A DNA stretch of 62,347 bases, counting the filler, from Deltaproteobacteria bacterium (GTDB lineage Bacteria; JAUYMQ01): NCBI GenBank assembly GCA_030698575.1. It is 9 parts of 9 records of this genome, joined end to end, with 100 filler letters (N's around TTAATTAATTAA, not from the genome) between each part and the next. Parts side by side here need not be neighbours in the genome. Positions count along the whole stretch, not along the records: positions 11,094 to 18,153 come from JAUYMQ010000561.1; 8 more parts are not named here. The stretch is one strand, 5' to 3'. Position numbers and translations under genes: made by a program. The notes under the pieces are model-generated. The model was not told where the DNA came from and searched no databases. It saw only the letters and a list, made by a program, of their open reading frames with translations. This document shows, piece by piece, positions 10,994 through 18,253 of the stretch (position 1 is the first letter of the stretch; each line of letters begins with the position of its first letter).

Positions 10994-11093
10994 NNNNNNN
11001 NNNNNNNNNNNNNNNNNNNNNNNNNNNNNNNNNNNNNTTAATTAATTAANNNNNNNNNNNNNNNNNNNNNNNNNNNNNNNNNNNNNNNNNNNN
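10994..11093. other. Artificial contig spacer
   Basis: N44-TTAATTAATTAA-N44. The same spacer occurs at 18154, 22656, 27537, 35517, 41017, 44202 and 58837 (100 bp each). Confidence 0.99.
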
Positions 11094-14000
11094 ATCATCG
11101 TAGTCGTAGTCGAACCCGCCCAGACCCCCGATAGTGGCCGTATCCAGCCGGTCGAGCCGGTCGTAGGCGTAGGTCTTGCTCTTCCCGGCATCGAGCGTGT
11201 CGGTGATGGTGGTGATATTCCCCGTCTCATCGAACGTGTAATCGAGCGAGAGCACCGGGGAACCTGTCGGGGGCGCCACCGAGAGAAGATCGAGCTGCCC
11301 GCCCCCGTCGTAGCTCCGCGTCTCGGCGAGGCCGTTCCCGTAGGTGAGCCCCGTCAGGGGGCCCAATGGATCGTAGGTGAGCCCCGACGCCAGGCTCGTG
11401 TTCGTCCCCTGGTAGTTCATCGCGACATCGGTGACGCGGTCGTTCAGGTCATAGGCGTAGCTCGCGACCCGTCCCGAGGGGTACGTCATGGTCAGCAGAT
11501 TGCCGTTCTCGTCCCAGGTGTAGGCGAGAGAGAGCGTCACGCCGTCCTGCACGCGGGTCTCCCCGGCGAGATTACCCCGCGCGTCGTAGGAGAAGTAGGT
11601 CGTCCCCGAGGCGTCCGAGATCTGCACGAGCCGCCCCTTGCCGTAGGTCAGCGGCAGCGGGCCGTCGGAGCGCGCGTCGTAGGTGTAGGTGACGTTCTGC
11701 GTGGGGTCGGAAGGGAAGGTGAGTTGCGTCAGCCGGCTCGCGGCGTCGTAGGTGTACTGCGTCTCGACGTCCGAGGCGGGGTTCTCGGCGAGATCGGTCT
11801 CGATCTTCTTCAGCACGTTGCCCGCCGCGTCGTACTCGAAGCGAGTCACTTGCGTGTCGGGCGAGATGACCTTGAGCAGCCTCCCCAGGTCGTCGTAGGC
11901 GTAGCCGGTCGTGTTTCCCCGGGCGTCGGTCACCGAGATCAGGTTGTCGTTCCGGTCGTAGGCGTACTGGGTGTTGATCTCGACAAGACTGGGCTGGGTC
12001 TCGGTCGCCTGGAACACCTCCGTCAGGCGCGAGAGGGCGTCGTAGGCGAAGCGGCTCTGGCGCTGGAGGGTCACAGCCCCGTCGAAGACCTGCACCTTCG
12101 TGCGGTTGTTGTCGGTGTCGTATTCAAACGAGGTGTTCGCGCCCGCAATGACGGGGTGCTGGGCCTGTTCTAGGCGGTTCAGCGCGTCGTAGACGAAGTC
12201 CCGCATGCGCGAGAGGCCGCCCGCCGCGTCGAAGACCTCGGTCTTGAGAAGGTTCCCCTCGTCGTCGTACGTATAGTGCACGCGCTCGCCCGGGGGCAGC
12301 GCCGGCGGGGCGGGCGGCGTGGTGGAAGTGCGCGTGATGTCCGTGAGCCTTCCCGCATCGTCGTAGGCGTAATCGATGAAGTTCCCCCGGGGGAGTTTCA
12401 CGTAGTCCACCCGCCCCAGGCCGTCGTAGACGTACTCGGTCTTCTTCCCCGGAAACCCGGGCACCGTCACGCTCGTCACCCGCCCGAAGGCGTCGTAGCT
12501 GAGGTCGGTGGCGACCCCGTTCGGGTCGATGATGCGGCCGGGGATGAGAAAGTAGTCGTTGTAGTTCGCGAGCGGCAATTGCGTCGTGCCGACCACCGGC
12601 TGAATGACGGCGGTCGCGCGCCCCGCCGTGAGGGGATCGTTGTGCTCGACGGTCGTGCGATCCCCGGTGCCCGGAAGCGGACCGTCCACGGTCTCGAGCT
12701 GGTTCTGGGCGTTGTAGCCGAATTTCGTCAGCGTCACGAAGTGGACGAGCGCCCCTAAAGCGTCCCGCGTCCAGCCGATCTCAATCTGACGGAGGAGGAG
12801 ACTCTCGATCTCGTTCGGATCGTTGAAGTCCGCAGGCGTCAGGGTCGGGTCGCCGAGGACCGTGGCGTCGTTCTTATAGTTGGGTCCGCCTGGCGGCTCG
12901 TAGTCGAAGATCGTGTAGGCCACCCCGCTTAAATTCACGACGCTCGGGCGCTCGATCGAAAGGGGCGTCCGGAGCACGGGATGGTAGGTCACGGGCGTCG
13001 TCCGTGCGAGGGCGGTTCCGGGCGCCTCGACAACGGTTTGGGGATTGCCCCGGGTGTCGAAGTTCGAGAAATCGGTCTCGCGCCCCTCGCGGCTCACCAG
13101 GGCCGTGACCCGCCCGTTCGCGTCCTTCTCCGTGCTCTCTGTGCTTCCGACCCCGCAGGTGCCACAGGCGTCTCCGGTCACCGTGAAGGTTTCCTCGCCC
13201 GTCATCCCATCGTGGGTGAGGTCGTAGGTGACCGTGCCCGCCGGGGTCCGGGTGTTCGTCACGGTGGCCGTGGTTCCGGCGTAGCCCACCGTGACCTTTC
13301 CGGCCCCGTTTGCGCGGCTCGACAGAATAGCGCGGTCGACTGTGTCGTAAGAGAAGACCGCAAAGACCTCGCCGTCTGGGTCGACGATGCGCGTCAAGTT
13401 GTGGAGGTCGCCACCGTTCGAGGTGTTGTGCGGGGGCCCCTCGCTTTCGTAAATGAATTGCCAGGACTTCGAGTCGGGCTGCGTGATCGACGCGAGGTTC
13501 CCGTCGTCGTCATAGTCCAGCGTCCAGGGCGATCCGGCCTCCTGCACGCGGATGGCTTGAAGCTTTCCCGCCTTCTTGCCCGCTTCGCCGGATGCAAAGG
13601 GGAAGTAGTCGAAACGAACGCGCTGGTTGACGAATTTGATTCGCGAAACCCTGGACGGATGATTCAGGTCGTAGGAAAAAGATATCGGGAATGCTTCTCC
13701 GGCCTTTCTCTCGCGAAGCGTCAGGCGGCCATTCGCGTCAAAGGTGTAGGTCCAGCCATCCTCGCCCACGAGCGTCCACGTCGTGCTCTGCTTGGTGAGG
13801 AGGCCAAAATTGGCCTCTTCACCGGCCCAGGTCGCGCCACTATCCGTTGAGGTGAAAAACCGCCGCGAGCCATCTTTCCACTGAACCGCCACCTTCCAGA
13901 CGCCCCCGGCGTTCAGGAAGGTCTGGAGGTTCATCGCCCAGGGGTGGCTCCACCCCAGACCCATCCCCACATCCACATCCGAGCGCGAGCGGTAGGTCAG

Positions 14001-14987
14001 GGGAACCGAAACGTCTACGTCGAATTGCCGGGCTGACAGCGTCGGAATGGTTTCAACGTTTTTCCCGAGGATGACGTTAATCGGGTTTCCAGCGCTCGCC
14101 GCGCAGTCTTCGATGCCGCAGCCCAGATCCGCAATGCCGGACGCGTTGCCCGCTTCCCCCGAGCACTCCACTTTCGAGCAGGCATCTCCCCCCTCCACGC
14201 CGTCGGTGTCGGTCTGGGAGGCGTTGGCGACGGTGGGGCAGTTGTCCGTACAGTTGGCCACGCCGTCGCCGTCCGCGTCGGCGTCGTCGGCGAGGCCGTT
14301 GCAGTCGTTGTCCACACCGTCGCAGGCTTCCGTGTTCCCGGGGAATCGCAAGGGGTCGCGATCATCGCAATCCCCTGCACAGGCGGTCACGCCGTCCTTG
14401 TCCAGGTCGCTCTTGAGCCCCACCGTCGGATCGCCGTCGTCGCAGTCCAGGCACACCGGGACCCCGTCCAGGTCCGCGTCGTCCGTGCAGCAACCCGTGT
14501 CGATGACCTTCAGATTGCCCACGTACCCGTCGCCCAACACATTGGCAGACACCGCGTCGATGGCCTGCTGGCAGGTTGAATCGAAACTCGTCCCGTCGGG
14601 CAGCGCACCGCCGCAGTTCTCATAGTTGTTTCGATTGGCCGAATAGCCCCCCGTCTGCGTCGACAACAGGTTGCCCGCGCAGTCGTAGTTCTTCACGTCC
14701 GCCCGGGCGTCGCAAGAGTAACTTCTCGCGTAGGGGGCCTCACAGAAGTTGCAGGTGTCCGCGTTCGTGGAGCAGCAGCCGTAACAGAGTTGATAGCAGG
14801 GATTGGGGTTCCAGCAGCCCCCCACCCGTAGGGACTCGTAGGGCTCGGTGACGACCTTGAAGGCGACTTGCCCACGAGCCGGAGTGGGAGCTAGGCCAGC
14901 TATCAGGAGAGCCGTTGACGCGATCGCGATGCGGAGGAGCTTTCGAGTGCTCATCGAACACCTGACCAGCATGCGGAGGCGCCTCAT
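11094..14987 (-). CDS. Secreted RHS/YD-repeat protein with Cys-rich N-terminus, MopE-like and thrombospondin type 3 motifs and DUF6531-like domain; 3'-truncated
   Basis: Signal peptide ..TPARG; DCDDRDPLRFPGNTEACDGVDNDCNG; DGDGVANCTDNCPTVAN; GNPINVILG...GLGWSH; many YDxxGR repeats; start may be 14954. Confidence 0.9.
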
Positions 14988-15140
14988 ACGGCGCTTCTCA
15001 GCACGCGGGGGGTCAGTCAGGGAGATTTCCCTGGGCCGCGAGCTTCACGGGGGAGTTCGAGCGGGGCCGGGGGGCCCGGTCATCCGGGTCAAAGGAGATA
15101 AAACCATGACCCCCGATGCCAACACCCTTGCGATGTCCCA

Positions 15141-15169
15141 GCTGTACGGGGGCGAACCGACAAAGTCAA
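15141..15169 (-). promoter_or_regulatory. Possible sigma70 promoter for the RHS gene
   Basis: TTGACT-N17-TACAGC on the minus strand. Confidence 0.35.
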
Positions 15170-15277
15170 GGAGCGGCCACGGAAAGGGGGCGAAACTGGA
15201 TCGAGGGACAGGCGCTAGCTGCTCGACTTTTCCGGGGCAGGTGGTACGAGGCAGACCCGACATGTCCGGTCGGTTAA

Positions 15278-15547
15278 TCACCGTGGACGGTGTACGCAGG
15301 AGCAGGGAGGTTCGTAGCCCAGAAACGCGATGATTCTCATCCAGTAACGCAGCGGTGGCTCTGTCCGCCCCCGCTCCCAGTTGGCGGCCGTCAGCGGATG
15401 AACGCCCAGTTGGCGGCCGACCTCCATCTGGAGCAACCCGAGCTCCAGCCTCCGCTTCCTCAGGTGGTCCCCCCAGGTCCGGAGTTCCCTCGGGTAAGCC
15501 AAATCTGCTGGTTTTTCGGCCCTAAACCGCAGGTAGCAGAAAGGCAA
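15278..15547 (-). CDS. XRE-family HTH protein
   Basis: GDHLRKRRLELGLLQMEVGRQLGV...NWERGRTEP; starts immediately at the comM junction. Confidence 0.85.
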   Translation of the reverse strand: MPFCYLRFRAEKPADLAYPRELRTWGDHLRKRRLELGLLQMEVGRQLGVHPLTAANWERGRTEPPLRYWMRIIAFLGYEPPCSCVHRPR

Positions 15548-15565
15548 CGCAGGGGTGCCCCTGCG
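15548..15565. mobile_element. Putative att junction of a comM-integrating element
   Basis: CGCAGGGG-TG-CCCCTGCG perfect inverted repeat exactly where comM homology begins. Confidence 0.7.
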
Positions 15566-16032
15566 GCTACCTGGGTGATCCGCGCCACACTTGTGCGTGT
15601 AGCGCCGAAGAGATCCGGCGTTATCGTTCGCGTATCTCGGGACCCTTACTGGATCGAATCGATCTGCATGTCGAGATGAGTGCCGTGCCGTGGAAGGAGT
15701 TGACGGCGGATCGCGCGGGAGAATCGTCCGCGAACGTGCGGGCGCGCGTGGAGGCGGCGCGCGACACGCAGCGCGCGCGGTTTGCCGGGCGGACGTTCGC
15801 CTTCAACGCCGCCATGACGACGCGCGAGGTGAAGCGCCACTGCCACCCGCAGCCCGACGCGATGGTGTTGCTCGAGCGGGCGCTGGAGCGGCTCGGGTTG
15901 TCGGCGCGCGCTTACATTCGCATTTTGAAGGTGGCGCGGACGATCGCGGATCTGGAAGGATCGAAGGGCATTCGGACGCCGCACGTGGCCGAGGCCATCC
16001 AGTACCGGTCGCTGGACCGGGCGATCCCGTAG
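15556..16032 (+). pseudogene. comM: 3' fragment of ComM (YifB family Mg-chelatase-like ATPase)
   Basis: CPCGYLGDPRHTCAC...RYRSRISGPLLDRIDLHVE...LSARAYIRILKVARTIADL...HVAEAIQYR; upstream reads TAGSRKATQG with in-frame TAA at 15523 instead of AAMNP. Confidence 0.92.
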
Positions 16033-16122
16033 CCCTCTCCTCAGGGGCCATAAGTCAACAAGTTAAGTCCACCCCATCTAACTCAACCCTGTGTGCACAA
16101 AAGTGGGTGAAGGCCATCTCGT

Positions 16123-18153
<2,031 letters not shown>

Positions 18154-18253
18154 NNNNNNNNNNNNNNNNNNNNNNNNNNNNNNNNNNNNNNNNNNNNTTA
18201 ATTAATTAANNNNNNNNNNNNNNNNNNNNNNNNNNNNNNNNNNNNNNNNNNNN

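Follow-up and report, generated by a model that had tools for sequence, protein, structure and literature searches.

Serine integrases are valued in genome engineering as simple, one-directional enzymes, and comM is their commonest natural target. The targeting of comM/yifB genes, which code for magnesium chelatase/ATP-dependent protease homologues, by large serine recombinases (LSRs) is described by Durrant et al. 2022 (PMC10083194). Likewise, the LSR of phage WO sr1WO is reported to enter the magnesium chelatase gene of Wolbachia, with XRE regulators situated at the far end of the prophage (PMC9203015). In other systems the attachment site lies inside a gene of the element itself. The SSV-type tyrosine integrases of archaeal fuselloviruses are described as having the att site in the integrase gene, which is interrupted upon integration (PMC5861418), and in the integration-dependent immunity systems of cluster G, N and P mycobacteriophages attP is reported to be in the repressor gene (PMC9262239). 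Here we describe a comM junction from a deltaproteobacterial metagenome-assembled genome (MAG), found in a stretch of 62,347 bases that we call the window, at which the 3' part of comM meets a small gene with a helix-turn-helix (HTH) domain of the XRE type. Comparisons of this junction with related loci indicate that positions 15536-15575 are very probably the attR site of an LSR family that inserts at the TG of the comM CPCG codons, and that the XRE frame is the split-off tail of the recombinase.

The window comprises nine contigs (C562-C570) of a MAG with 653 contigs, 4.13 Mb and a completeness of 91.6%, with spacers of 100 N between them, and the junction is contained wholly in one contig of 7 kb, C563 (window 11094-18153). 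The initial annotation had described a comM gene split at CPCG in a feature starting at 11094; the junction itself is real, while the start is merely base 1 of the contig. At the junction there is a perfect 8+2+8 inverted repeat, consisting of CGCAGGGG (15548-15555), TG (15556-15557) and CCCCTGCG (15558-15565). The whole window has seven perfect inverted repeats of this form, approximately one per 9 kb, and given such sparseness a chance placement of one of them exactly at the break in homology is unlikely. The comM frame opens with TGC CCC TGC GGC (CPCG) at 15556, continues for 158 aa to a stop at 16030-16032, and is closed by a stop 10 codons upstream of the junction. It matches positions 159-206 of the 207 in the Pfam Mg_chelatase domain (PF01078, E 1.6e-14) and the whole of Mg_chelatase_C (PF13335, E 7.6e-35), and its protein identity to the intact comM of a family member (G002) is 82%. 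The abrupt beginning of comM homology inside a perfect inverted repeat, as initially annotated, is thus confirmed by both sequence and Pfam matches.

On the other side of the junction, a minus-strand TTG (15547-15545), one base from the repeat and nine bases from the crossover, opens an 89-aa frame (15547->15278) with an HTH_3 domain (PF01381, E 4.9e-09). The first residues of this frame, LPFCY, align with the predicted starts (MPFCH) of 13 homologues. Its 40 database relatives show 42-67% identity, and most of them are ~145 aa long with a second HTH. The version in the window, with its single HTH and 89 aa, is shortened relative to these, and no trace of a second HTH, including a frameshifted one, was found downstream of it. 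The perfect repeat at the junction is best read as the inner portion of the element half-site (P arm) facing the comM half-site (B' arm). The P-arm motif AAAGGCAACGCA is kept across the 43 junctions compared, and other loci match 5-6 of 8 at the eight repeat positions of the window, as read by eye from the alignment. The perfection of the repeat would then be partly a habit of the family (..CGCAG.. beside the core) and partly luck.

The same join recurs widely. A scan of one genome per prokaryote species with an XRE peptide motif yielded 55 loci, which come from Planctomycetota-type, Gemmatimonadota, Chloroflexota, Verrucomicrobiota, Acidobacteriota, Nitrospinota, Bacteroidota, Actinomycetota, candidate phyla radiation (CPR) and other MAGs. 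In 31 of these the XRE start abuts an opposite-strand comM 3' copy with the same first residue, and the junction DNA aligns base for base, with the element arm (..AAAGGCAACGCA..) being followed by four variable bases, TG and the comM codons CCNTGYGG. A check proposed with the initial annotation, namely whether XRE homologues abut comM fragments, was thereby answered in the affirmative. The other 24 loci were not scored as adjacent, with a few of them displaying a decayed comM-like or palindromic flank by eye. At L076 (~1740-1790), L058 and L067 the XRE tail faces a second, inverted P' arm in what resembles an attP palindrome, and the DNA upstream lacks a recombinase gene. These sites are either decayed elements or junctions inside arrays that have no recombinase.

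The recombinase is seen at the opposite end of the element in relatives. comM pieces were looked up in ten genomes, and their regions were scanned with Pfam and searched with the LSR of one of these genomes, G041. In six of the ten (G041, G042, G046, G047, G048 and G050) the 5' half of comM is directly abutted by an orthologous LSR. These comM-adjacent LSRs are 54-78% identical to that of G041 over the Resolvase and Recombinase domains, and their genes are convergent with comM, with the 3' end crossing the junction, while the comM 5' halves end near Mg_chelatase position 158-184. Both ends of the element are found on one contig in G041 and G042, in the order comM 5' half (Mg_chelatase 1-158), LSR, cargo and then the XRE-comM 3' junction (154-205), the sizes being ~36.5 and 39 kb respectively. 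The halves of the target meet without loss or duplication, since the 5' match ends at 158 in both genomes and the 3' match in the window starts at 159; the halves join in frame as N-P/C-P-C-G. The attL of G041 reads ..ATGAACCCA-TG-ACGTTGTGTTGCC.. and its attR ..GGCAACGCAACAG-TG-CCCCTGCGGC.., and in both G041 and G042 TG is the sole sequence common to attL and attR. The element arms of attL and attR are mutual inverted repeats, which is the form expected of a serine-integrase attP. The initial reading of the site as a serine-integrase att junction with a TG core in comM accords with these observations, namely the same join at 31 of 55 loci and an LSR at the comM 5' half in six of ten genomes. 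A tyrosine-integrase model with a gene-restoring 3' end was also considered and dropped as the main mechanism, given that LSRs abut the comM 5' halves.

The contents of the G041 and G042 elements include TrwB/VirD4-like ATPases, a primase, a relaxase-like protein, restriction-modification systems, a SAVED-domain protein and other cargo. Part of this cargo (L091:81-1427, L093:3960-9116) is anti-phage in character, with the SAVED protein, type I restriction-modification, a large methylase and a PemK-like toxin, and complete comM elements therefore spread defence genes. Of the remaining genomes, G043 and G044 have a full-length comM with an XRE-comM 3' junction 9-28 kb downstream and no family LSR in between, and G045 and G049 have comM 3' copies only. 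Such XRE-comM 3' units may be stacked, with four of them on one contig of G049 (C182) and another four in G048, and stacks without a recombinase are seen in G043, G044, G048 and G049. The stacked comM 3' copies have a mutual DNA identity of 70-89%, thus differing by 11-30%. No recombinase was found among 95 island-side frames within 6 kb of the tail at 21 loci (95 of the 178 frames picked were scanned), and the cargo that they encode is heterogeneous.

The key to the XRE frame comes from another contig of the same MAG. The MAG carries four LSRs, of which the one on C105 is 61% identical to the comM-adjacent LSR of G041. The C105 frame passes without a stop through ..TKWQRNFTPALPFC.. into XRE HTH domains, forming a single frame of 739 aa with the architecture Resolvase, Recombinase and two to three HTH stretches, and is hence of the serine type and not an SSV-type tyrosine recombinase. 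The site within it is a palindrome made up of two perfect 17-bp arms and a 10-bp centre, GGGG-TG-AAGT, whose TG lies at the exact dyad. The stretch GGCAACGCAGGGGTG on C105, made up of 13 P-arm bases and the TG core, is identical to window 15543-15557. This match covers the four variable positions, at which GGGG occurs in none of the 43 other junctions compared. The palindrome on C105 matches the left arm of the repeat in the window and identifies it as element DNA, as the initial annotation had it. Judged by its sequence, C105 holds a true, unrecombined attP inside a recombinase gene. As the LSR frame is open and in phase through attP into the HTH region, integration would cut the gene in two. 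The other LSRs of the MAG, on C121, C606 and C7, show 24-26% identity to the comM-targeting family.

Single LSR-HTH frames are not confined to C105, with two of the 55 loci, L074 (a Kerfeldbacteria MAG, 797 aa) and L080 (a Saccharibacteria MAG, 589 aa), showing the same arrangement. Similarly, the attL and attR frames of G041 are mutually in phase. An exhaustive search of 1.84 billion protein representatives recovered 646 relatives at E<=1e-30. In 13 of the best 150 representatives a region matching the window XRE follows the LSR body, and a large number of the others end at the position encoded by attP. Phage and plasmid collections contained only distant LSRs, with identities below 30% among the matches listed. 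The XRE gene of the window is very probably, as these fused frames predict, the cut-off tail of a serine-recombinase gene; the initial annotation had counted it as cargo, and the fused frames on C105, L074, L080 and in 13 of 150 representatives point to a detached recombinase C-terminal region and not to an independent cargo regulator.

These observations suggest the following mechanism. The LSR would recombine its palindromic attP with an attB inside comM, the cut falling at the TG with which the codon for the first CPCG cysteine begins. The family appears to be widespread in uncultured bacteria of many phyla, with complete members of 36-39 kb that resemble integrative and conjugative elements (ICEs). 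Before recombination the LSR frame would continue across attP, without a change of phase, into one to three HTH domains of the XRE type. In the integrated state the LSR gene at the left end of the element would read out into comM, and the XRE frame at the right end would read inward. Integration would thus truncate the recombinase, with the catalytic body remaining at attL, where the comM antisense strand adds some foreign codons and a stop, and the HTH tail being left at attR, 9 bases from the crossover, lacking both promoter and leader. Whether or not the HTH tail is tethered may alter the behavior of the enzyme; perhaps integration is carried out by the full-length enzyme, and the split one is locked or depends on a helper.

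Several points weigh against this interpretation. Domain searches found no recombinase on C563, in agreement with the statement in the initial annotation that the junction contig lacks an integrase. The assembly has no attL, since the P-arm motif occurs with both arms on C105, with one arm on C563 and nowhere else. Nor does it have a comM 5' piece that ends at the TG site. The tail on C105 differs in sequence from that in the window, so that C105 is not the other half of this island. A word-indexed search found no long proteins with the C105 tail; the fused forms were found by the exhaustive search. The candidate loci were chosen by the XRE motif alone, and the query used for confirming them held 12 residues derived from the comM antisense, which could slightly favor comM-adjacent copies at that step. 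Finally, the spare comM 3' ends of ~480 bp on the islands are not explained by LSR chemistry, which duplicates only 2 bp. These spare ends have diverged mostly at silent sites. One option is that islands bring along an attR-type site, that is, a P arm, TG and a comM arm with the 3' end; recombination of such a site with a comM site would rebuild comM, displacing the resident 3' end each time. Another option would be homologous recombination between the 3' copies.

Were the junction a chimera formed in assembly at a short palindrome, it could be accounted for without any biological recombination, and the low depth of C563 (~5x in Logan contigs), the mixture of at least two comM 3' alleles in the MAG and the capacity of palindromes to confuse assemblers all leave some room for this. 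We nevertheless regard it as highly improbable. A Logan contig of run X1, built independently, spans 14676-15696 with 0 differences from the window. X1 is probably the source sample of the MAG, which makes this a case of the same reads under a second assembler; as this assembler produces an identical join, the junction is not an artefact of the MAG assembly alone. Read-run support was assessed by comparing Logan contigs only, which for X2, X3 and X6 cover no more than short pieces of the stretch or its right-hand portion. The 8-bp arms are far below the word length of any assembler, and an identical geometry of the join is found at 31 loci from unrelated assemblies and phyla. A different objection concerns the XRE gene, which might be an ordinary stand-alone regulator at the end of the element, the LSR-XRE frames then being inconsequential fusions or junctions of tandem elements. 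Gene callers indeed give stand-alone proteins of ~145 aa for most homologues, TTG, or an upstream ATG or GTG in some, is usable as a start, and the authors of the phage WO study call the XRE genes at the prophage end regulators (PMC9203015). However, the frame starts one base from the repeat, and the element DNA leaves no room for a promoter or ribosome-binding site. Moreover, the frame through attP is open and in phase in the unrelated C105, L074 and L080, the G041 attL and attR frames are in phase, and 13 of 150 database representatives bear the tail on an LSR, all of which makes a stand-alone regulator unlikely.

The state of the copy in the window is a separate matter. The initial annotation had predicted a comM 5' part ending in ...AAMNP beside an LSR elsewhere in the assembly, and had proposed that comM is inactivated and could be restored by excision. 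The only comM 5' contig, C282, instead reads ..AAMNPCPCGYLGDP.. through the CPCG site and continues for 36 codons to the end of the contig. As this contig is uninterrupted and the assembly has no attL, inactivation and excision find no support for the window copy. The alternative is a complete, active LSR element that interrupts comM, of which C563 would be the right end and whose left end went unassembled or unbinned, so that excision would restore comM. The comM 5'-LSR state in six of ten genomes, the fragmentation and incompleteness of the MAG (653 contigs, 91.6%) and the low DNA identity (73%) of C563 comM to C282 in their overlap speak for it, as does a repetitive extragenic palindrome (REP)-like motif on C563 that departs from the MAG consensus, such that C563 may derive from a related strain with its other junction missing. 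Conversely, the reduction of the tail to one HTH without a second-HTH remnant suggests decay, neither an attL nor a second P' arm is present in the assembly, and recombinase-less islands are common, as judged from the absence of a recombinase among the 95 scanned frames at 21 loci and from the stacks in G043, G044, G048 and G049. We consider a complete element possible but doubtful, and give a little better than an even chance to the window copy being an island, or what remains of one, that has RHS cargo but no recombinase and lies downstream of a comM still continuous across the site.

Other comM pieces in the sample bear on the same question. An internal comM piece on C627 (1563-1865), running from ..RCSAEE.. 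to ..LLERA, shows 97% identity to the last 72 bases of C282; next to it are a His-rich frame at one end and a REP-like motif at the other. This piece was considered as the missing comM 5' half and rejected, as its left break is not at TG and it hence reflects a different rearrangement. The comM identity between C563 and C627 is 81%, which is within the 70-89% range of stacked copies. DNA identity to the relative G002 fails to single out the native comM 3' allele, being 76-83% for all. An X1 contig that matches the window from 15556 rightward is preceded by 13 bases reading the comM codons A-M-N-P, a hint, from one contig with one short side, that an uninterrupted comM site, with a right side resembling the window copy, exists in the X1 sample. 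Taken with C105, the window copy looks like a decayed example of the family in a MAG that also holds an unrecombined enzyme gene with a matching arm.

Beyond the detached recombinase tail, we tentatively suggest a broader role for comM as a gene-capture platform of a self-splitting serine recombinase. Full-length LSR-HTH would be made only from an unrecombined site, as on C105, and this enzyme would insert the autonomous element and might also insert, stack and perhaps swap recombinase-less cargo islands. Each island would bring its own comM 3' end as a spare, together with a P arm inside the detached tail, such that comM is rebuilt upon every insertion. Joining and removal of the HTH tail would serve as a built-in directionality switch that replaces a separate directionality factor. 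The RHS island of the window, with its 15 P-arm and TG bases as in C105, would then be a helper-dependent cassette.

Coordinates of the features on contig C563 are collected in Table 1. The composition profile along this contig shows no clear break at the junction. The RHS frame matches RHS_repeat (E 4e-68) in six stretches, and has in addition DUF6531 and a MopE motif. At two other loci (L049/L097 and L078) RHS genes are likewise found island-side of the XRE tail, and the initial placement of the RHS gene in cargo-side DNA agrees with this and with the Pfam match. Blocks of 100 N are found at window 10994-11093 and 18154-18253 and at five further places, and contigs adjacent in the window are not necessarily neighbors in the genome; frames that cross these spacers, such as the listed 11046..14987, are artefacts of contig joining. 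A REP-like intergenic repeat of ~30 bases (..AACAAGTCAATAAGTCAAGCCTGACCCCGGTT..) is present at window 16052-16080 and recurs in the MAG at 13 or more further places, C627:1885 and sites on C25, C244, C289 and C499 among them. The copy after the comM stop on C563 clearly diverges from the MAG consensus, and this divergence hints that the right flank of C563 might come from a related but different genome.

Table 1. Features around the comM junction, in window coordinates
Feature	Position	Strand	Remarks
Putative attR site as a whole	15536-15575	.	P arm + TG + B' arm
P arm, predicted element half-site of attR	15536..15555	.	Minus strand encodes ..TPALPFC, start of XRE tail
Predicted crossover dinucleotide TG	15556..15557	.	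First two bases of first CPCG Cys codon
B' arm, predicted comM half-site of attR	15558..15575	+	Codes ..PCGYLG; first 8 bases are the reverse complement of 15548-15555
comM 3' copy	15556..16032	+	158 codons and stop; without own start
Probable detached HTH (XRE) tail of split serine-recombinase gene	15278..15547	minus	HTH_3, homologue alignment, in-frame fusions
290-bp spacer, tail to RHS gene	14988..15277	.	No family match
RHS/YD-repeat gene, cargo side	11094..14987	minus	N-terminus present; C-terminal end lost at contig start
AcrB-type pump gene	16123-18135	minus	Runs off right contig edge

An attP inside the integrase gene would represent a new kind of direction control, if the tail matters for activity, as the free and inserted forms would then encode different enzymes. 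For annotation, hundreds of small metagenomic "XRE regulators" beside comM fragments would be tails of a gene and not regulators, and comM fragments would mark islands bearing toxins (RHS in the present case) and defence systems. Since attP, attR and uninterrupted comM sites all appear to occur in this one sample, the idea lends itself to direct testing.

Accretion of islands in tandem at one att site is also known from cis-mobilizable elements (CIMEs) and from the staphylococcal cassette chromosome (SCC) composite islands at rlmH, which depend on the Ccr serine recombinases. In these, as in the family described here, att-bounded islands without a recombinase pile up at one target and are presumably moved, if at all, by an enzyme encoded elsewhere, but the islands at comM each carry a spare target 3' end of ~480 bp, in copies differing by 11-30% in DNA. 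We know of no serine recombinase that generates spare, diverged 3' ends of its target gene. Likewise, no description of a serine recombinase with attP in its own gene, splitting off an HTH tail, was found in the full-text literature, subscription-only papers excepted.

Among the systems with which we began, the comM/yifB elements of Durrant et al. have in common with the window family the target, the Resolvase and Recombinase domains, a palindromic attP, a 2-bp core and precise intragenic insertion, whereas the in-gene att site, the HTH tail and the recombinase-less islands with a spare comM 3' end go unmentioned in the available portion of that account (PMC10083194). Phage WO sr1WO is described as a tailed phage, in contrast to the ICE-like element and cargo islands seen here (PMC9203015). 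In the phage collection no close relative of the C105 protein was found, all 1227 matching records being below 60% identity and the best listed at 25-29%. The cluster G, N and P mycobacteriophages resemble the window family in having attP in a coding gene, in the difference between the free and integrated versions of the protein and in that no separate directionality factor is evident, but differ in that, as reported, it is the repressor that is split, a tyrosine integrase enters a tRNA gene and the switch depends on an ssrA-like degradation tag (PMC9262239). The SSV-type integrases, in turn, are archaeal tyrosine enzymes in which the catalytic gene itself is partitioned, whereas in the window family only the accessory DNA-binding tail would be lost and the catalytic body would remain whole (PMC5861418). 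Thus, the LSR of the window family would work like an SSV-type integrase, without being a member of that group.

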